The notes under the pieces are model-generated. The model was not told the DNA's origin and did not search any database. It worked only from the letters and a program-made list of their open reading frames with translations. A stretch of DNA of 12,009 nt from a virus, in the UHGV virus genome UHGV-0151214. One strand, 5' to 3'. The position numbers were made by a program, and so were the translations under genes. Of the stretch, positions 1-12,009 are shown piece after piece (positions within the stretch are counted from its first letter, which is position 1; every line of letters begins with the position of its first letter).

Positions 1-1488
1 GACCCTTATGCGCAAGCTGGAGAAACAATTGGCGGGTATTTAGTTCCAGGAGTTGGAACGGCAGGAAGCATGGCTATAGGATCACTGGCAGAAGCCGCAA
101 ACCAGAAAGGCGATTTCGCGCAAAATGCAGCCATAAACGCCGGAGTTAACCTTGCCGCTCAGGGTGTTCTTTCCGCAGCAGCAAAGGGAATAGGGCGTGG
201 AATAACGGCTATAAAAGGCGATATCGCGCCAGAAGTAGCGAAAAAAATTGCCACCTCAGAATCGATGGGCGTGACACCTATGACATCTGATGTTATCCAG
301 CCGAAAAATGCTTTCACTCGCGGTCTTACTCAGGATGCCGAGGGGGCTTTGCTCGGGACAGGCTCAAAGCGAGCGGAGCAATATGCAACGCGTAGTAAGT
401 TGGTAAGTAATTATTTTGACCGTTTTGGTGAGTACAACCCGGATGATGTGGTGAAATCTCTGACCACCACGTTAAGGGGACGGAAGGATGCCGCTGGCGC
501 TGTTATCAATGACGTCACCAATAAAATGGGTAATGCCGCAGTTGATACCACAAATACCATGAATGCTCTGAATACAGCGATCGCAAGACAGGAACGGCTT
601 GGGACGTCTGCCAATCAAAGCCTGCTTACATCCTTGCGTAACCTACGTGAAGAATTAGCAAACCCTGCAACTGATTTGGATGTTACGTTTGATCTCTTGC
701 GTCAGCACAGAACAGCATTTAGATCTAATGTTCAGGGAGATGCTATGGTCTTCCCCAACCAGGCAAAAGCAGCTACCAATATGGTAGAGAATGCAATGTC
801 AAAAGACCTTCGTAACGCAGTTGCTAAAAACCTCGGTGCATCAGACGCAGCAAAATACCTTAAAGCAAATTCCGATTATGCAAACGTTTATAATAAGGTG
901 CTTAATAAAAACATTGCTAACAAACTCAACAAGGCAAGCAGTGAAGCCAGTCCTGAACTTATAAATACCGTTGTATTAAGCAGAAAACCATCTGACGTGA
1001 AACGAATCTGGAGCGCACTGGATGATAAAGGGAAAGATGCTATGCGTGCAGCTTACGTCAGCAAAATAGCGGAAAAGGCCGGTGACTCTCCAGCCAAGTT
1101 CATCACTGAAGTTAATAAGCTGAAATCTCAGTCAGGCGGTGAAATTTACAACACTATTTTTTCTGGAAAGCACATGAAAGAACTTGATGCTCTTCATGAA
1201 GTTCTACAGCAAACAGCAAGGTCAGACACCGCAAATGTAGTAACTCAGACGGGGCAATCGCAAGCCAACAGGATAAGGACGATTGGCGCAACTGCGACTC
1301 TTGGCGTATCAATGGGGCTTGAGGCTGGTTTCGGTGCAATGATGCGCTTGTATGAATCCAAAGCAGCAAGGAATGCTCTCTTACGCTTGGCAAACACCAA
1401 AGCAGGAACACCAGCCTATGAAAGAGCGCTAAATAATGCTGCGAATGCCATCAGACCGCTGTTTGCTACTGAGGCAACACAGCAGTGA
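1..1488 (+). CDS. DNA ejection (injection) protein, P22 gp16-like, 5'-partial; the reading frame is open from base 1 so the true start is upstream of the window
   Basis: Frame 1 has no stop from position 1 to TGA at 1486-1488 (at least 495 codons in window). The product is Ala/Asn/Lys-rich and low-complexity, typical of P22-type ejection proteins. It sits immediately upstream of an mnt/arc/ant region and tailspike, where P22 has gene 16. Assignment is by composition and synteny only. Confidence 0.55.
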
Positions 1489-1505
1489 CTAAATGCCATG
1501 GATGG

Positions 1506-1955
1506 CTATTTTTTAGTGTAATAATCATCAAAATCGCAAGAAACAGATATCACAAAACCTGAAGTCATAGAAAAAGACAGGGTTTCACATGCCTTTCCGG
1601 CTTGATGGTATGCATTGATGCCACCGTATACGGATTCTCTTGATGAAAACAATGATTTTTCACCGTTTTTTTCTACAAGAATATGCCCATCTGAATCATT
1701 AATAAACCAAACAGAAATAGAGGAGCTTTCGCCAAGGAATGTTCTGTTGAATACCATGGGTGATTTACCCTTGACAACATTTTCTGCGCGCATAATCAGC
1801 TCAGCATTTTTTTTGCTATTTTTTTGTTCTGTATAGATTTTGTCTGCCACAAAATAAACAATGGCAATGGCTAACAAAGATAGGGAAATCAGCAATGCCT
1901 TTTTAATCAATTTTTTTGCATCCCTGTAAATCTCAACTGATAATTTTTCACTCAC
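1506..1955 (-). CDS. Hypothetical membrane-anchored protein (one N-terminal TM helix, about 110-aa C-terminal domain); candidate superinfection-exclusion protein by position (SieA-like locus)
   Basis: Minus-strand ORF with likely GTG start at 1953-1955, preceded by a perfect AAGGAGG Shine-Dalgarno (plus 1961-1967) at 5-nt spacing. Hydrophobic segment ALLISLSLLAIAIVYFVA follows a Lys-rich N-terminus. The longer 221-aa version in the ORF track would overlap the divergent gene and lacks an RBS. It occupies the slot between gene 16 and mnt where P22 carries sieA. Confidence 0.55.
   Translation of the reverse strand: MSEKLSVEIYRDAKKLIKKALLISLSLLAIAIVYFVADKIYTEQKNSKKNAELIMRAENVVKGKSPMVFNRTFLGESSSISVWFINDSDGHILVEKNGEKSLFSSRESVYGGINAYHQAGKACETLSFSMTSGFVISVSCDFDDYYTKK
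1916..1944 (+). promoter_or_regulatory. Candidate sigma70 promoter for the 1986..2351 gene (TTGCAT, 17-bp spacer, GATAAT)
   Basis: TTGCAT at 1916-1921, a 17-bp spacer, GATAAT at 1939-1944, about 40 nt upstream of ATG 1986. It overlaps the 5' end of the divergent minus-strand gene. Motif match only. Confidence 0.3.
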
Positions 1956-1985
1956 ACCAACCTCCTTAGTTTTGCGCAGGATACC

Positions 1986-2351
1986 ATGAAAAAAGTTAAC
2001 ATTGGAAACGTACCAAAGATGCTCGTTCCGCTCTTTGAGAGCGGTACAATTGTGTTTTGTAGAGACTTTCCAGAATGGCAACGCCTGCATCAAAAACTTG
2101 GCGTTGACGTGCATGACTCGGACGCCAACGGAGCGTCTCATACAATGAGTAGCGAGAATGGTGTTTTGCATGTGATAGGCGTGTTCAATGGCAAACTATC
2201 TACTATTGCCCATGAGTGCGCTCACATGGCATTCGATATCTGCTCAAGGGTAGGTGTTGATGTTGAACCAGGAAGAGCCAACGAGACTTACTGCTACTTA
2301 ATGAGCAGGCTTGTTGAGTTCTGCGAGCGACATATCAAAAAGCCGGAGTGA
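1986..2351 (+). CDS. Small (121 aa) hypothetical protein with an HExxH motif (TIAHECAHMAF); possible minimal zincin-like metallopeptidase fold
   Basis: ATG at 1986 with AGGA 4-5 nt upstream; clean 121-codon ORF. The HExxH sits in a predicted helical context with Glu residues 14-20 aa downstream as possible third ligand. No family recognised by eye. Confidence 0.6.
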   Translation: MKKVNIGNVPKMLVPLFESGTIVFCRDFPEWQRLHQKLGVDVHDSDANGASHTMSSENGVLHVIGVFNGKLSTIAHECAHMAFDICSRVGVDVEPGRANETYCYLMSRLVEFCERHIKKPE

Positions 2352-2410
2352 ACCGGCTTGATTATTACTTTTTGCTGTCTGGAGTTCGCTTATCCAATAC
2401 CCAGCCATGA

Positions 2411-2647
2411 CCTGGCTTTTTAGCAACTGCAGATCGCACAATCAATGTTCCATTCCACGGAACAAATCTCTTTTTGGTCAGCATTAACAATGAACCTTAC
2501 GTTCCTATGAAACCCGTTGTAGAAGGCATGGGTATGGTTTGGGCTGCTCAATTTGTTAAATTAAAACAGAGAGTTGTCAAAGGTATTTCGGAAATCGAAA
2601 TACCTTCTGCTGGCGGCGCAGGCTGCACCAAAAAAGAAACCAATTAA
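2411..2647 (+). pseudogene. Remnant of an antirepressor (Ant-like) N-terminal domain; no ATG start at the homologous N-terminus
   Basis: Frame open from stop TGA (2408-2410) to TAA (2645-2647). Translation TINVPFHGTNLFLVSINNEPYVPMKPVVEGMGMVWAAQFVKLKQ aligns with residues about 11-55 of the intact Ant encoded at 3960..4862 ([45 protein letters not shown]). Similarity ends after KLKQ and the frame terminates about 25 codons later. Confidence 0.55.
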
Positions 2648-2885: not shown

Positions 2886-3203
2886 CTATTTTTTCTCAGA
2901 GCTCATATTGTAATAGGTGGTATAAATAGAGATTGATTTCTGACATGCTTCAAGAAATTGCTGCGGAGTCATCCCAAGCCTTGCTTGCTCTGTAGTAAGG
3001 AATCTCTGTAAGAATTCATTCCCACCTGGCATGTTTGTAGATTCTTGGAATATTGCCATTTGTTTGATTGCACCACACATACCAGCCATTTTCGAAGCTA
3101 TCATGAGGCCTTGTATTTCATCAAAACTGCTATCGTCTGATTTTGTTTCTGCGTTAGCTATGCTCGAGAGACACAGGAGCAATAGGATAGCGATGCGTTT
3201 CAT
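2886..3203 (-). CDS. Small secreted (periplasmic) protein, 105 aa, with cleavable signal peptide and two Cys in the mature part; co-transcribed and translationally coupled with mnt
   Basis: Minus-strand ATG (3203-3201) overlaps the mnt stop (3202-3200) as ATGA. N-terminus MKRIAILLLLCLSSIANA-ETK is a classic Sec signal peptide with an AxA cleavage site. Two Cys in the mature part could form a periplasmic disulfide. Confidence 0.6.
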   Translation of the reverse strand: MKRIAILLLLCLSSIANAETKSDDSSFDEIQGLMIASKMAGMCGAIKQMAIFQESTNMPGGNEFLQRFLTTEQARLGMTPQQFLEACQKSISIYTTYYNMSSEKK

Positions 3204-3451
3204 TTTTCACCGTTGCCATGCATACATTTTAACTTCTCAACCTCATGCTCAAGCTCTATCAACCGCGATGCTATAGTTGCAATATCTAGTGCTTGAATAT
3301 GTTTATTTTTTTCAGTCCATGCCTCAAGTGCTGCTACCATCTCAGCATTTAATGAACGAGAATTAGCCTCAGCCAGCTCAATAAGACGTTCCTTTATCTC
3401 TACAGGAAGCCTCAGATTCACTTGAGGGTTTTTGTACTTACGATCAGACAT
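3200..3451 (-). CDS. mnt: Mnt-like ribbon-helix-helix repressor (83 aa)
   Basis: NLRLPVEIKERLIELAEANSRSLNAEMVAAL matches the P22 Mnt N-terminal RHH region (NFRMPMEVREKLKFRAEANGRSMNSELLQIV, from memory). Same length as P22 Mnt (83 aa) and divergent from the arc-ant operon as in P22 immI. AGGA SD 8 nt upstream on the minus strand. Confidence 0.85.
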   Translation of the reverse strand: MSDRKYKNPQVNLRLPVEIKERLIELAEANSRSLNAEMVAALEAWTEKNKHIQALDIATIASRLIELEHEVEKLKCMHGNGEK

Positions 3452-3556: not shown

Positions 3557-3697
3557 ATGAAGGTAAAAACACTGCGTATGCCAGAGAAGTTAGAAAAAAT
3601 CCTTGAAGAGAAAGCAAAGGAAGAGTGTCGCTCATTTAGCGCAGAAGTAATTAAACGGGTGTTGGACAGCCTGAAAAGAGAGGGGATAACAGTATGA
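3557..3697 (+). CDS. arc: Arc-like ribbon-helix-helix repressor (46 aa)
   Basis: [46 protein letters not shown] aligns with P22 Arc (…RWPREVLDLVRKVAEENGRSVNSEIYQRVMESFKKEG, from memory). GGAGGA SD upstream of ATG 3557. Below the ORF-track size cut-off, found by manual translation. Confidence 0.8.
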   Translation: MKVKTLRMPEKLEKILEEKAKEECRSFSAEVIKRVLDSLKREGITV

Positions 3698-3897
3698 GTA
3701 AAGAATGTTGTTTCTGCGGCATTAGCGAATCAGACGCTGATCAAACATACATTTACTCTAAAGAAACAGGTCGGATGCTGTGTAGTGACTGCGTGTTGGA
3801 CATCATAAGATACAAGCATCTTGGATGTTCTGCCAGCATTAGCAATATAGGTGAAGTATACGAAGGGAAAGATATAACTGATAGAGCAGAAAGTTGA
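3694..3897 (+). CDS. Hypothetical small Cys-rich protein (67 aa; possible zinc-ribbon-like), translationally coupled to arc
   Basis: ATG 3694 overlaps the arc stop (3695-3697) as ATGA. Cys at positions 5, 6, 8, 30, 33 and 45 (CCFC … CSDC … C). It lies between arc and ant where P22, as remembered, has a short intercistronic region. Coding status uncertain. Confidence 0.4.
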
Positions 3898-3959
3898 AGC
3901 CCCAACTGCGGGAACAGTCAGGGCTTCGGTTGTCAGTAAATCCGTGGAGAAAAACCAAC

Positions 3960-8234: not shown

Positions 8235-8639
8235 ATGTCTGCTCAAGTAACAAGTGAGCAATTAAATCAGTTGCTTAGTTTTGGTTCTCTTGCTGCAGTT
8301 ATTGCAGGTGTCCCTCCGGAGGTTGCTTTAGGGGCTTTGGCTGGGGCGGTAATTTTTGTTACCTCTGCAGTAGAGTACCCTATCCGTCGCCGGGTGCTCC
8401 TGTCGATGCTCAGCTTTCTTTGCGGCCTTCTCTTTTACAAACCAGCAGCATCAATTCTTATCGGCATAGCCAGCCTGATCCCTACCATCACGCAGGACTC
8501 TTTTGAAAAAGGGATTGTTTTCTCTGCAGGCGCATTCGTGTCAGCAATTGTCGCTGTGCGTATTGGTATATGGCTCTATCACCGTTCCGATAATCCACGC
8601 GAGTTAATTCCGGGGAGAAAAGACGATGGTAACGCATGA
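8235..8639 (+). CDS. Holin-like or antiholin-like membrane protein (134 aa, about 4 hydrophobic segments, charged C-terminal tail)
   Basis: ATG 8235 with AGGAG 7 nt upstream. Multiple TM-length hydrophobic stretches and a charged C-terminus ([19 protein letters not shown]). First gene of a cluster with a second holin-like gene, endolysin and spanins. Confidence 0.5.
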   Translation: MSAQVTSEQLNQLLSFGSLAAVIAGVPPEVALGALAGAVIFVTSAVEYPIRRRVLLSMLSFLCGLLFYKPAASILIGIASLIPTITQDSFEKGIVFSAGAFVSAIVAVRIGIWLYHRSDNPRELIPGRKDDGNA

Positions 8640-8934
8640 GTTTTTTTTGCTTATCACTAATGCAGTTATTTGCACTGGCATAGCAATTCGCGTTGTCACA
8701 TTCCGGCGTAACGGCTCTCAACATCGAAGGTGGGGAGGATGGCTTGCTTATTTCCTGATTGTTGCTGCGGCCAGTATTCCTGTTCGAGTCGCCTATGCAA
8801 TCTGGTTACGTACGCCAATGGCTGTGGATTTATCTGAGGTCATTATCAACGCTGTCATGCTGGCTGCGGTTATTAAAACGCGCGGTAACGTCGTTCAAAT
8901 TTTTAAAGTATCGAGGTCTAAACATGGAGATTAA
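8626..8934 (+). CDS. Putative holin (102 aa, 3 TM segments, basic C-terminal tail)
   Basis: Three hydrophobic segments and C-terminal [19 protein letters not shown]. Overlaps the preceding gene by 14 nt and the endolysin start by 11 nt. Confidence 0.6.
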
Positions 8935-9553
8935 ACAATTCCAGCGAGCTGCTGGTATCAGCGAGGCACTGGCCGCACGCTGGTTCTCGCATATAACTTC
9001 TGCGATGAAAGAGTTTGGTATCAGCAAAGCAGAAGATCAGGCAATGTTTATTGCTCAAGTCGGGCATGAGTCTGGGGGCTTCACCAGGTTGCAGGAGAAT
9101 TTCAACTACAGTGTCAGCGGACTGGCTAACTTCGTTCGGGCTGGGCGTCTCACTCAGGGGCAGGCTAATGCACTGGGGCGCCGTGCTGGTGAACCACCAT
9201 TGCCACTTGAGCGCCAGCGCGCGATCGCAAATCTGGTATACAGCAAACGCATGGGGAACAATGCCCCTGGTGATGGCTGGAATTACCGAGGGCGCGGACT
9301 TATCCAGATTACCGGTTTGAATAACTATCGTGATTGCGGAAACGGTCTGAAGGTTGACCTGCTGGAGAGCCCTGAACTGCTGGCGCAGGACGAATATGCG
9401 GCTCGTAGCGCGGCGTGGTTCTTCGCCAGCAAAGGATGCATGAAGTATACCGGCGATATTGCACGTGTAACTCTGATTATCAATGGTGGCCGGAACGGCA
9501 TCGACGACCGGCGAGCGCGGTACATCACTGCCAGTAAGGTGCTGGCGGTATGA
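8924..9553 (+). CDS. Endolysin, glycoside hydrolase family 19 (chitinase-like phage lysozyme), 209 aa
   Basis: GH19 signatures [12 protein letters not shown] (catalytic Glu in HES), a second Glu in LQENFNY, and [19 protein letters not shown] 8924 preceded by GAGG. The track's longer version from 8759 reads through the holin in a frame with no lysozyme similarity. Confidence 0.85.
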
Positions 9554-10032
9554 TCTGGGCATTCGTAAAAGCATACTGGAAACAGTTTCTTATCGTGGCA
9601 GTGCTTGCTGTTCTGGTCATATCAGGAGTGGTTGCCTGGAATATACACGGCAGTCGCCAGTACGATGCCGGGTATGCTCAGGCGGAAGAAGACCGCAAAG
9701 CCGAAGAAGACAAAGTTCGTCAGTACTACGAACAGGAGAAAGTGACCAATGAACGTGAAGCTCAGCAGAGGATCGACCAGGCGCGCAATGATGCTCTTGA
9801 TGCTGCCGCTAGCGCTGGCCGGTTGCAGCAACAACTCTTTGCCATCCGTGAGCAGCTCAGGCAGTATAACGCCATTGTCGGCGCTGGGTCGTCAGCCGCA
9901 GACACCGGAGTTTTGCTTGCCGACGTGCTCAGCAAATCTCTCGAGAGAAACAGACAACTGGCAGAGTATGCTGACCGGGCAGCCGAAGCCGGAAGAGTCT
10001 GCGAAAAACAGTACGACACTTTGACCAGATAG
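9550..10032 (+). CDS. i-spanin (Rz-like inner-membrane spanin subunit), 160 aa
   Basis: ATGA overlap with the endolysin stop. N-terminal TM ([18 protein letters not shown]), a long charged coiled-coil periplasmic region, and a Cys near the C-terminus. Sits immediately after the endolysin and contains an embedded lipoprotein ORF. Confidence 0.75.
9788..10024 (+). CDS. o-spanin (Rz1-like outer-membrane lipoprotein), embedded in the +1 frame of the i-spanin gene
   Basis: [13 protein letters not shown] has a lipobox (LAGC) and a signal-peptidase II site. The mature part is about 58 aa, Ser/Pro-rich with additional Cys. It lies entirely within 9550..10032 in another frame. Start taken at ATG 9788; the track's 9749 start adds an unlikely N-terminal extension. 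Confidence 0.65.
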   Translation: MMLLMLPLALAGCSNNSLPSVSSSGSITPLSALGRQPQTPEFCLPTCSANLSRETDNWQSMLTGQPKPEESAKNSTTL

Positions 10033-10248: not shown

Positions 10249-10788
10249 TTAGTTAAACCAGCTGTCCGATTTGTTCTCTTCTGCTTTGCCCACGCTTTTC
10301 ATCAGATCTCGACCGCCCTCAGTCATATTCCTGTTTGCGTCAGCTTCAGATTGCACCACATCGGTTTGCGCAGCTTTGTGCTTCAGTTCCTGATCGATAA
10401 ATTCGTTTTCTCGCTTAACGCGGGCTTCTTCTTTCGCCAGCGCCAGTTTTTGTTTCTGAATCTCTAAGCTGCGTAGCTCATCTTCATAACTTTGATCGCG
10501 TTTTTTGTCCGCAGAGGCTTCGGCGTCCAGTTTATCCTGACGAGCTTTCTTATTTGCCGCTGCCGTTGCCGCTCTTTTGTTAGCGGCGGCCTGGGCGTTT
10601 GCGCGACGTTGCTTCTCTTGCTGGATTTCCCTGTTGCGCTCCGCGACCCATTCGTCATGCTGCCTTTGCTCTTCATTTTTACCTTGCTGTTCCGCTTCTG
10701 CGACAGCAGAGAGTTGATCCTGCAATGATGAGGCGATAGCCGGATAGCTTAAGGAGGCTAAGATGGCGCAAAGAAAAACTTTCTTCAT
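10249..10788 (-). CDS. Secreted Lys/Glu/Ala/Gln-rich (coiled-coil-like) periplasmic protein, 179 aa, with signal peptide
   Basis: Strong GGAGGAG SD upstream of the minus-strand ATG. N-terminus MKKVFLCAILASLSYPAIA-SS is a Sec signal peptide. The rest is highly charged and helical (…QQEKQRRANAQAAANKRAATAAANKKARQDKLDAEASADKKRD…). Lies 16 bp downstream of the lipoprotein gene on the same strand, so probably an operon. Confidence 0.6.
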   Translation of the reverse strand: MKKVFLCAILASLSYPAIASSLQDQLSAVAEAEQQGKNEEQRQHDEWVAERNREIQQEKQRRANAQAAANKRAATAAANKKARQDKLDAEASADKKRDQSYEDELRSLEIQKQKLALAKEEARVKRENEFIDQELKHKAAQTDVVQSEADANRNMTEGGRDLMKSVGKAEENKSDSWFN

Positions 10789-10803
10789 GACTCCTCCTGA
10801 TCA

Positions 10804-11322
10804 TTAGCTCTTTTCAGGACATTTGGTATTTGGCTGAATACGCGTTTCGTTATACGTCGTGGTAATAACAACGGCTAAACCTGTCGTAAACTGGCACTCT
10901 TTACCCACCTGGGTGGAGGTATACACTTTGGTGCCTTCCTTATACGTTAGAGAAACACCTTCCACTAAGGTTTTATCATTCACCATAGAACCCGCTGCCG
11001 CGCCAACAGCTCCGCCGCCAACTGCACCTGCCGTCGTTCCGGAATTGCTGCCAGACCCGACGTTGTGGCCAATAACACCGCCAGCGACTGCACCAATAAG
11101 CGCGCCGAAGGCTTGTGCGTTTCGTTTATTTTGGGAGTTGTCTACGGCAACTTTTGCGGGAAGAATGGAAATAATATTAACGGTTTTAGTTTCTTGTTTG
11201 GTATTCAGTTGATCGGTTTGATAAACATCGGCGGCATGATCATCAGCATTTGACTGGCATCCTGCCAGAGTGAATGACGCTAACATTGCCACAGGCAGAA
11301 GACATTTTTTAAATTTCATCAC
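10804..11322 (-). CDS. Outer-membrane lipoprotein with glycine-zipper region (SlyB/Pcp/YcfJ-like family), 172 aa
   Basis: Lipobox FTLAGC after a signal peptide. Gly-zipper segment GALIGAVAGGVIGHNVGSG…AGAVGGGAVGAAAG resembles the glycine-zipper motif of YcfJ/SlyB-type lipoproteins (recalled, not searched). AAGGA SD 7 nt upstream. The upstream region 11323-11510 is strongly AT-rich. Confidence 0.65.
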   Translation of the reverse strand: MMKFKKCLLPVAMLASFTLAGCQSNADDHAADVYQTDQLNTKQETKTVNIISILPAKVAVDNSQNKRNAQAFGALIGAVAGGVIGHNVGSGSNSGTTAGAVGGGAVGAAAGSMVNDKTLVEGVSLTYKEGTKVYTSTQVGKECQFTTGLAVVITTTYNETRIQPNTKCPEKS

Positions 11323-11632
11323 TATTCCTTGTTATACACATTACGAAAAATAAGACATTTAAGATCATCAAAAGAGGAAAGTAAATGTATTGCGTATAAA
11401 GGAATAGATTAAATTTATTAAAATTCATGTGGAAAATAATTTATAAAAATACATCATTAAAACATATGTATTAATTTTATATTTATTTCGCAGCCAAACA
11501 GGATAAACATCAGTCAGGACAAAGACGTAAAATTTAAGATGAAAGAATATCTGCCGCTTTGATAATCCCAAAGAGCAAAAGCATCCGACAGCGAGGTGCC
11601 GTTATGTTCTGTGAAAGTGGAGAAGGTAACCG

Positions 11633-11806
11633 CTAACGTTGTACCGGTGATTCGACGGAGAGTGTGGATTGCTGAGCTTCTTTTTTGCTCTGATGGTGCT
11701 GCCATGCACCGACGGACGAGTAGATAAAACGGCCAAAGAAGAAGATAAAGCTGATGAGCAGTACGATACGGGTCATGCGACTGTTAAATCGGTGTCGTTT
11801 TCGCAT
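11633..11806 (-). CDS. Possible small membrane protein (57 aa from ATG 11806; alternative start ATG 11776)
   Basis: Minus-strand ORF encoding MRKRHRFNSRMTRIVLLISFIFFFGRFIYSSVGAWQHHQ… with one clear TM segment. The track start is GTG with no convincing SD. Coding status uncertain. Confidence 0.2.
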   Translation of the reverse strand: MRKRHRFNSRMTRIVLLISFIFFFGRFIYSSVGAWQHHQSKKEAQQSTLSVESPVQR

Positions 11807-12009
11807 ACTGGTTGCCTGACTCACAAAAGGTTCCTTGATGTATGTCCCACGCTGTGGACGGTACTTACATTAAGGCACAACAGGACAAAATGGTCAATTC
11901 TTCGTTATGTAAAAAAGCGTCAGTGGATACATATTTTAATGTTATGGAAGTTAATTTAATTATTTACAATGATGATGTAATAATGATGAATTAACATGAT
12001 AAACGTAAT

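Follow-up and report, generated by a model that had tools for sequence, protein, structure and literature searches.

An unrelated membrane-protein gene in the sieA slot of a P22-like prophage, and its independent neighbour hkcC, a predicted zinc peptidase gene

The right arm of a P22-like Escherichia coli prophage, contained in a 12,009-nucleotide (nt) stretch of the viral genome UHGV-0151214 (hereafter the window), carries two small divergent genes between gene 16, which encodes an ejection protein, and mnt. The first, which we call mem149 (1506..1955, minus strand), encodes a 149-amino-acid (aa) protein with a hydrophobic segment near its N-terminus; the second (1986..2351, plus strand) is hkcC, previously named in phage HK620, and encodes a 121-aa protein with an HExxH motif (TIAHECAHMAF, residues 73-83). 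A preliminary description of this sequence had presented the two as a single two-gene module. Our comparison across related prophages shows instead that mem149 and hkcC are almost certainly independent accessory cassettes that happen to abut. As the likeliest reading, we propose that mem149 is a lysogen-expressed exclusion protein analogous to SieA of P22, and HkcC a small zinc peptidase of the lytic cycle, and we hold the account as a whole with moderate confidence.

Adjacent genes that are not partners

The physical layout is as first described: the coordinates, the GTG start of mem149, its AAGGAGG Shine-Dalgarno (SD) sequence, the single transmembrane (TM) helix, the HExxH motif and the 30-bp gap between the two starts (1956..1985) were all found in the sequence. 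Because both families are conserved down to 25-30% identity, and because AlphaFold2 gives confident models of both proteins (predicted local distance difference test scores, pLDDT, of 88-89), these are real genes rather than chance open reading frames (ORFs).

Their supposed partnership fared less well. Read as one coupled system, mem149 and HkcC would serve exclusion, abortive infection or anti-defence jointly, for example as a membrane sensor or anchor and a metallopeptidase effector, with regulation through overlapping divergent promoters. The arrangement of the genes is compatible with such a system, since they are divergent, lie 30 bp apart and have the mem149 promoter region inside hkcC, and the pair recurs at four other loci (L006, L008, L009 and L012 in our collection). 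However, hkcC adjoins a mem149-family gene in just 5 of 17 contexts, namely these four and the window; at a further locus (L010) it lies ~1.8 kb away with a P63C-domain gene between, and it is absent from 11 of the 17. These 17 contexts include seven IMG/VR contigs, with close relatives or the homologue at locus L014, and five loci with divergent family members (two near-duplicates). Among 5426 complete E. coli genomes, mem149 is present in five and hkcC in 131, and only one of the 131 hkcC-bearing genomes has the pair. Each gene also occurs in other company: mem149 homologues are found alone at one locus and with mnt only at three, while hkcC has sieA as its neighbour in P22 and hkcB in HK620, and is also found in siphovirus tail clusters and in virulent phages. 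Neither protein has a match in PADLOC-DB 2.0 at E ≤ 1.

The co-occurrence data thus largely refute the coupled system, which we consider highly improbable. Recombination at a boundary sequence common to these loci accounts for the pair's recurrence, such that the adjacency reflects cassette shuffling rather than a functional partnership. The preliminary description had itself named a failure of the pair to co-occur in related prophages as grounds for refutation, and this is what we observed; the proposed coupled regulation of the two genes is likewise unsupported.

An exchangeable cassette with inherited expression signals

The genes were said to lie in the hotspot where P22-type phages carry sieA and variable morons, and the flanking genes bear this out. 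The variable slot has a constant neighbour on its left, the 3′ part of gene 16 (the last 472 codons; 70..1488, plus strand), and mnt, recognised by its Arc/Mnt Pfam match, lies at 3200..3451 (minus strand). Within the slot, mem149 has a GC content of 35%, compared with 46-47% in gene 16 and hkcC, as is typical of an imported cassette.

We aligned the window with P22, HK620 and the E. coli genome DETEC-S589. From the GTG of the slot gene outward, through the SD sequence, the 30-bp gap and hkcC, the DNA is near-identical. Homology is lost at the GTG, and from the second codon the slot genes sieA, hkcB and mem149 have nothing in common. In the window this start codon is at 1955-1953 and the SD sequence at 1967-1961, with a spacer of 5 nt. 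A longer, ATG-started ORF extends up to 2171; we rejected it as the frame in use, since the RefSeq homologues and family members are 149 aa long from the GTG.

The shared slot-gene signals (1956..2040, minus strand) consist of the 30-bp gap, with the SD sequence AAGGAGG at 1961-1967, and the first 55 bp of hkcC, and they include the putative PsieA DNA. The annotated P sieA falls at the window equivalent of 1986-2016; the P22-pbi record does not annotate the hkcC ORF and places the promoter across the first 30 nt of it, hkcC being annotated in other records. A single chromosomal copy of P22 sieA that retains no more than 85 bp of its upstream sequence confers >10^7-fold exclusion (PMC10883804), and these 85 bp correspond to 1956-2040 of the window. 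The slot is an exchangeable cassette between conserved joints, and mem149 inherits the expression signals of sieA. Its production in the lysogen is probable, because it is read from the same GTG, SD sequence and upstream DNA as P22 sieA and HK620 hkcB. The preliminary description had each promoter overlapping the coding region of the other gene and took this as a sign of coupling. The overlap holds for mem149, whose promoter region is inside the 5′ end of hkcC, but it belongs to the slot as such and does not speak for coupling.

The 5′ end of hkcC also contains a perfect inverted repeat, CCGCTC-TTTGA-GAGCGG (2029..2045), which on the minus strand is located just upstream of the putative PsieA and is identical in P22, HK620 and DETEC-S589. 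It could be an operator, an RNA hairpin or a mere coding constraint.

At the other joint, between the stop codons of gene 16 and the slot gene, lies a boundary element (1495..1514, plus strand) made up of GCCATGGATGGC followed by TATTTTTT, with a small hairpin and a T-run. The element CCATGGATGGC with its T-run is kept across loci L001-L007 even where both flanking genes differ, and the window shares the sequence CCAxGGAxGG with P22, HK620 and three further prophages, against flanking DNA that differs among them all. The element appears to mark the left edge of the exchangeable cassette, and is a candidate cassette-exchange sequence or weak late-operon terminator.

A small family tied to one slot

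We detected no similarity between mem149 and either type-A SieA of P22 (BLASTP, E = 33) or HkcB of HK620. A tblastn search of 50,697 phage records found no match to mem149, nor was there a significant match in Pfam, NCBIfam or PHROGs; a genome contig scan with the mem149 alignment found no relative, and viral contig scans with P0037 and P0041 gave no match. Relatives came from larger protein collections: a word-indexed search of 5.8 billion proteins returned four mem149 clusters, and an exhaustive HMMER search of 1.84 billion representatives returned 15, 11 of them with E ≤ 1e-10. All members with a source name are called "hypothetical protein", and come from E. coli, E. albertii and Salmonella.

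In each of the five complete E. coli genomes with mem149, the gene lies 17 nt after gene 16 and is convergent with it. The neighbour on the far side is a hypothetical gene plus a YafO toxin gene in ExPEC XM and PU-1, hkcC in DETEC-S589, a P63C-domain gene in 23CRST044, and a Panacea-domain gene plus a hypothetical gene in 20AR0300. The same range of cargo was seen at the hkcC position in sister prophages (L003, L004, L007 and L010), which carry a YafO-family toxin gene with a hypothetical gene, a Panacea-domain gene with a hypothetical gene, or a P63C-domain gene. This suggests that the position beside mem149 is itself variable, a second slot that takes up toxin-antitoxin or defence-like genes.

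The more divergent relatives keep the same location. Five members with 25-34% identity, in IMG/VR contigs, end 1-22 nt from a convergent ORF of 604-886 aa, beyond which lie an Inj_translocase (gp20) gene and then a gene of the size of gp7, with a Head_binding tailspike gene on the other side. At three loci (L026, L028 and L029) the region between gene 16 and gene 9 consists of mnt, confirmed by Arc and Repressor_Mnt Pfam matches to its product, and a mem149 homologue 37 nt later on the same strand; in these three cases the homologue is probably co-transcribed with the lysogeny repressor gene. At L027 the homologue is the sole gene between gene 16 and gene 9, and at L014 it is preceded by an HNH gene. 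Overall, gene 16 is immediately followed by the mem149-family gene in every one of the 17 contexts, at least three gp16 C-terminal types are represented among them, and type-A SieA or HkcB co-occurs with it in none of the mem149 loci. The family thus stands on its own, bound to this one slot of P22-like phages. We conclude that mem149 represents a small, previously undescribed family, a structurally different occupant of a known exclusion slot.

A predicted periplasmic barrel and a tentative exclusion function

The mem149 protein has a basic N-terminus and one hydrophobic segment (residues 20-38; Kyte-Doolittle 19-residue mean of 2.34), followed by a 111-aa C-terminal part, in agreement with the single N-terminal TM helix and ~110-aa domain given in the preliminary description. 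The AlphaFold2 model, built on a 14-sequence alignment (pLDDT 88; predicted TM-score, pTM, 0.71), has a long helix at residues 2-61 that includes the TM segment, followed at 67-146 by eight strands that form a predicted 8-stranded beta-barrel. The model was likened to C-terminal domains of D-aminopeptidase and PBP-like enzymes and to a designed barrel; with identities of 3-11%, this likeness defines a fold class and not a family. In the family alignment, whose distant members have 25-39% identity, Y10, D12, K14, A57, R71, W83, D87, G120, C123 and C140 are conserved, and P66, D89, H91 and A119 are near-invariant. The invariant C123 and C140 are the only cysteines of the window protein; one is placed in the b5-b6 loop of the model and the other at the end of b7, from which we infer a periplasmic disulfide.

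We propose that mem149 is held in the inner membrane by its one N-terminal helix, with a probable N-in/C-out topology, and that it would expose a small, disulfide-stapled, 8-stranded beta-barrel to the periplasm. There, the barrel may meet the gp20/gp16 ejection conduit of a superinfecting P22-like phage, or the inner-membrane docking site of that conduit, and so block DNA delivery with a structure wholly unlike SieA. That mem149 is a lysogen-expressed exclusion protein acting on the gp20/gp16 conduit is a tentative assignment, to which we give somewhat less than an even chance. We make it on circumstantial grounds: the slot, the shared expression signals, the linkage to mnt and the same-slot precedents, which are SieA in P22 and, in phage BTP1, the antisense RNA STnc6030 that excludes BTP1 (PMC7067206). 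The suggestion that the membrane protein is a lysogen-expressed exclusion candidate, made in the preliminary description from position, is now plausible on further grounds: mem149 has the start, SD sequence and PsieA DNA of sieA, and its homologues lie directly downstream of mnt in divergent phages.

Several observations weigh against this assignment. The protein lacks similarity to any characterised exclusion protein, and the slot carries non-exclusion cargo elsewhere. The charges flanking the TM segment (+6/-3 on the N-terminal side and +4/-3 on the C-terminal side) do not settle the topology, and a consensus promoter scan flagged no minus-strand sigma-70 site upstream of mem149.

Among known systems, P22 SieA is one of the closest to mem149. 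Both genes occupy the slot after gene 16, convergent with it, with the same GTG start, SD sequence and upstream putative-PsieA DNA, and both encode membrane proteins carried, in the retrieved contexts, only by P22-like phages or prophages. SieA, of which types A-C have been described, crosses the inner membrane with 3-4 TM helices and has the motif FxRYPxEAxxFNK on its cytoplasmic side (PMC10883804). By contrast, mem149 has one TM helix, a predicted 111-aa soluble beta-barrel and no RYP motif. The same hydropathy window applied to P22 SieA gave several overlapping hydrophobic segments, which fits the three reported TM domains, and the motif is present as FGRYPGEANGFNK.

A further comparison is with single-pass or lipid-anchored exclusion proteins that have an extracytoplasmic domain, such as lactococcal Sie2009, Ltp of TP-J34, gp15 of HK97, and Imm and Sp of T4. 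These are small envelope proteins encoded by prophages and made in the lysogen, where they stop the DNA of related phages at the membrane; mem149 would resemble them in this, with no detectable sequence relationship. Lambdoid phages commonly carry variable membrane-protein morons at joints of this kind.

Two other functions for a membrane-anchored barrel deserve consideration. One is inhibition of peptidoglycan hydrolases, with mem149 as a membrane-tethered, periplasmic counterpart of PliC, which is soluble and periplasmic, and MliC, which is a lipoprotein; it would then protect the lysogen from lysozyme or block wall degradation by the incoming virion. We regard this as unlikely, given an identity of 8-11% to PliC and no match to Pfam MliC/PliC at E ≤ 1; moreover, strict linkage to the gene 16 slot, seen in 17 of 17 contexts, would be unexpected for a general lysozyme inhibitor. 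The other is an abortive-infection effector of the Cap15 type, whose cytoplasmic barrel would sense a ligand or phage product, with oligomerisation of the TM helix disrupting the inner membrane. Cap15 works with the cyclase of a cyclic oligonucleotide-based antiphage signalling system (CBASS), whereas neither a cyclase nor any other signalling gene lies near mem149 in any context. Identity to Cap15 is 5%, the PADLOC search gave no match, and two invariant cysteines, the only ones in the protein, suit an oxidising compartment better than the cytoplasm; a Cap15-type role is therefore very unlikely in our view. Across PliC/MliC and Cap15, identities to mem149 are 5-11%, with no match to a family hidden Markov model.

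The exclusion reading would have practical value. SieA, being polytopic, is a difficult protein in which to work out how DNA delivery by P22-like phages is stopped. Should mem149 prove to exclude phages, purification of the soluble periplasmic barrel would open the way to binding assays with gp20 and gp16, making the question of the ejection conduit approachable; if the proposal is true, the barrel would be a tractable probe of how podovirus ejection proteins cross the periplasm.

hkcC is a known gene of a widespread family

The preliminary description did not recognise the HExxH protein as a member of a known family. This was wrong: its sequence is identical to HkcC of HK620 at 120 of 121 aa, the gene is also present in P22, and the DNA from 1947/1953 to 2419 has 98% identity with both phages. 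The window thus has the same hkcC gene and terminator as HK620 and P22, and differs from them in a truncated orf59a and in having mem149 in place of sieA or hkcB. Among Pfam, NCBIfam, PHROGs and PADLOC, the only match of HkcC is to phrog_1365 (1.7e-39), a family of unknown function. The literature we found lists hkcC only as unknown; in the epsilon34 genome paper, where the region between genes 16 and 9 is called the "ant moron", P22 hkcC and 59a are listed as of unknown function (PMC2629481). Neither these two genes nor sieA are mentioned in an RNA-seq study of P22 (PMC8575938), and a literature search for SprT-like phage anti-defence proteases returned nothing relevant.

The HkcC family, with members of ~105-140 aa, is widespread in phages. 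A profile search retrieved 337 proteins at E ≤ 0.01, one of which is named "SprT-like family protein" by its source. Close homologues (57-78% identity) keep HECAH, NET and four cysteines. Relatives at lower identity include Orf-129 of ST64T and gp70 of epsilon34 (38-40%), which are encoded between the lysis genes and the terminase gene, beside the Dec gene, and mEp044_72, whose gene follows lysis genes. Virulent phages are represented by phCDa_24 of an N4-like Pseudomonas phage and by Kurepalu1_00034 of a T7-like Pseudomonas phage, the latter encoded between the ligase and RNA polymerase genes. The genes for epsilon34 gp70 and ST64T Orf-129 (L020:2501-2890 and L021:2501-2890) represent an HkcC-family paralogue of L-, ST64T- and epsilon34-type phages, and in the P22-like genomes ST160, UAB_Phi20 and Phi75 two places match.

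In all temperate-phage contexts examined, hkcC is co-oriented with the late genes. This orientation, the lack of a conserved promoter of its own and the homologues in virulent phages together point to a role in the lytic cycle rather than expression in the lysogen. By position, the HExxH protein had been put forward as a candidate for a lysogen-expressed exclusion, abortive-infection or anti-defence function; the homologues in late operons and virulent phages argue against a lysogen-specific exclusion role.

The predicted fold of HkcC resembles a minimal gluzincin

Only six residues, G49, H76, E77, H80, G90 and E100, are invariant in 46 HkcC sequences. The HExxH residues H76, E77 and H80 are invariant in alignments of 18, 8 and 46 sequences, down to 28-29% identity and including virulent phages. 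E100 belongs to an (N/Q)E(T/P) motif at the start of helix 100-116, 20 residues after H80; the same 20-residue spacing separates H146 and E166 of thermolysin. The AlphaFold2 model (pLDDT 89, pTM 0.83) has strands at 11-13 and 21-25, a helix at 28-37, strands at 49-56 and 59-66, a helix at 71-88 that carries HExxH, and the helix at 100-116 that begins with E100. This predicted layout, with a sheet, a backing helix, the HExxH helix and a further helix bearing a third-ligand Glu, is probably that of a minimal gluzincin. We propose H76, H80 and E100 as zinc ligands and E77 as the catalytic base. A second metal site or Fe-S site formed by the four cysteines (C25, C78, C86 and C103) was considered and rejected as a defining trait of the family, these residues being replaced in distant homologues that keep HExxH...E.

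The HkcC family is distantly SprT-like. Gluzincins and SprT-like zincins share with the HkcC model an HExxH motif on a long helix after a small sheet and backing helix, and a Glu on the next helix. In a Foldseek search of BFVD, 26 proteins of widely differing phages matched at E ≤ 1e-3, the TM-scores reaching 0.83; the few that have names are called "SprT-like family protein" or "Metalloprotease". Pfam SprT-like matches occur in 26 of the 46 HkcC members, with a best E of 0.016 and scores of 13-14 bits where shown, below the gathering cut-off of 25.6 bits for this family (PF10263); no other family recurs. In SprT, Wss1 and Spartan, the third ligand is a His downstream of HExxH, whereas no conserved His follows H80 in the HkcC family and the conserved downstream acidic residue is E100. 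By both score and third ligand, the sequences indicate that HkcC is not a member of Pfam SprT-like. An SprT-like protease domain is also found in the plasmid protein ArdC.

We conclude from the model and the conserved residues that HkcC is a distant, minimal, gluzincin-type zincin, for which we infer zinc binding and catalysis. The preliminary description had raised a minimal metallopeptidase as a possibility, and the confident zincin-like predicted fold and the invariant HExxH...E strengthen it; whether the protein is an active zinc peptidase we put at an even chance. On the other side of the balance, no HkcC member reaches the SprT-like gathering cut-off and the window protein itself has no SprT-like match, while searches of PDB sequences with the HkcC profile gave nothing, or spurious additive matches to designed tandem-repeat proteins. 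No conserved hkcC promoter was found, and the only plus-strand promoter-like site, at 1915-1944, falls in non-conserved mem149 coding DNA.

The location of hkcC beside mnt-arc-ant in P22 raises the alternative of a regulator linked to the immI region, either an ImmA/IrrE-like protease that would cut Mnt, Arc or C2, or a non-catalytic protein with a zincin fold. Weak BFVD matches to "IrrE" (E 0.03-0.07) also point this way. However, close homologues lie between tail-chaperone and tape-measure genes and distant ones between lysis and terminase genes; the N4-like and T7-like Pseudomonas phages with homologues lack immI; and HK620 retains hkcC even though its immI is a remnant. No HkcC member has a Pfam match to Peptidase_M78, hkcC has no adjacent Xre-type helix-turn-helix partner, and the invariant catalytic Glu favours catalysis. 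Taken together, we judge an immI-linked regulator quite unlikely, and return to HkcC as a peptidase of the lytic cycle.

As such, HkcC would be a zinc peptidase of the cytoplasm, expressed together with the late or lytic genes, and it may cleave a host or defence protein; that it acts on such a protein during lytic growth is speculative and, on present evidence, doubtful. We hold at a similarly low level a bolder combination, in which mem149 would be a fourth, unrelated class of P22-type exclusion protein that caps or mis-assembles the gp20/gp16 conduit, and HkcC a minimal zinc protease that eliminates one particular host or defence protein during lytic growth. New here are the prediction of the HkcC fold and active site, the wide distribution of the family and the pairing of hkcC with orf59a, hkcC itself having been named already. 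A gene that has been "unknown" in the P22 and HK620 genomes for ~25 years now has a concrete HExxH...E peptidase prediction that can be tested by mutation in a tractable model phage.

hkcC travels with orf59a

In contrast to its sporadic association with mem149, hkcC is adjoined by a full-length, convergent orf59a in 10 of 11 hkcC contexts. As defined here, the intact pair has orf59a ~13-20 nt downstream of hkcC on the opposite strand, with a common terminator. In the window this is a bidirectional intrinsic terminator (AAGCCGG-AGTGAA-CCGGCTT, 2340..2359) that overlaps the hkcC stop codon and scores positive in a terminator scan of both strands; the HK620 annotation calls it bidirectional, and that of P22 labels it "t mnt". 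HkcC homologues (57-63% identity) are encoded between the YdaY tail-chaperone and tape-measure genes in two metagenome contigs and in prophages of siphovirus type from Klebsiella oxytoca and Rosenbergiella. About 14 nt after the hkcC homologue, these have a convergent gene for a 59-aa protein with 78-83% identity to P22 Orf59a. These sequences indicate that hkcC-orf59a is a moron of two genes that passes from one phage morphotype to another, unrelated one. Siphovirus pair loci are found at L015:5001-5563, L017:5001-5556 and L018:5001-5526. Orf59a itself is weakly YjzC-like (Pfam E = 0.006), and in tblastn it matches a "YjzC family protein" of a Clostridium phage.

The window retains only a remnant of orf59a (2365..2419, minus strand), which consists of the last 17 codons and the stop codon; in tblastn, no part of Orf59a other than residues 43-59 finds a match. 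Position 2419 is where homology to P22, HK620 and DETEC-S589 stops, and the 5′ two-thirds of the gene has been replaced. We considered whether "AKKPG" in the remnant marks an internal in-frame deletion, and rejected this because homology ends at 2419 and never resumes. A fragment of a P22_AR_N antirepressor gene (2474..2647, plus strand; Pfam PF10547, E = 4.6e-10, profile positions 13-59 of 115) lies nearby. From the orf59a remnant and the antirepressor fragment, it follows that the ant moron of the window was rebuilt by illegitimate or short-homology recombination.

Other features of the window

The order of genes in the window is the 3′ part of gene 16, mem149 and hkcC, the recombination scars, mnt, arc, the sar RNA gene, ant and the tailspike gene, followed by a separate lysis cassette and the host genes yfgI, yfgH and yfgG. 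The gp16 of the window has 73% identity with that of P22 and 99-100% identity with those of loci L003 and L005-L008; gene 16 homologues are named "DNA transfer protein" or "P22-gp16 family" in RefSeq.

Downstream of mnt, a 105-aa ORF (2886..3203, minus strand) has a clear Sec signal peptide (MKRIAILLLLCLSSIANA/E). Its product matches phrog_19844, of unknown function, and has no match in Pfam, NCBIfam or PADLOC. The start of this ORF overlaps the mnt stop codon by 4 nt, a layout like that of mnt and the mem149 homologue at L026, L028 and L029, and the ORF is probably co-transcribed with the gene for the lysogeny repressor Mnt. Its product is a second candidate for a lysogen-expressed envelope moron.

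Between arc and ant is an extra ORF for a cysteine-rich 67-aa protein (3694..3897, plus strand), which is absent at the P22 locus and 100% conserved at L011 and L012. It is directly followed by a canonical sar antisense RNA gene (3892..3959, minus strand; Rfam RF00262, 95.6 bits). The immI region thus looks intact, with one added small gene.

The lysis cassette after the tailspike gene (8235..10032, plus strand) encodes Phage_holin_8, Phage_holin_3_7, a GH19 endolysin and a DUF2514 protein. There is no tRNA gene in the window. On the host side (10249..11824, minus strand) are yfgI (DUF5384), yfgH (a glycine-zipper lipoprotein gene) and yfgG (DUF2633). The lysis cassette and its junction with yfgI are present in 374 of the 5426 complete E. 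coli genomes, and the cassette is probably a prophage remnant that flanks the P22-like element.

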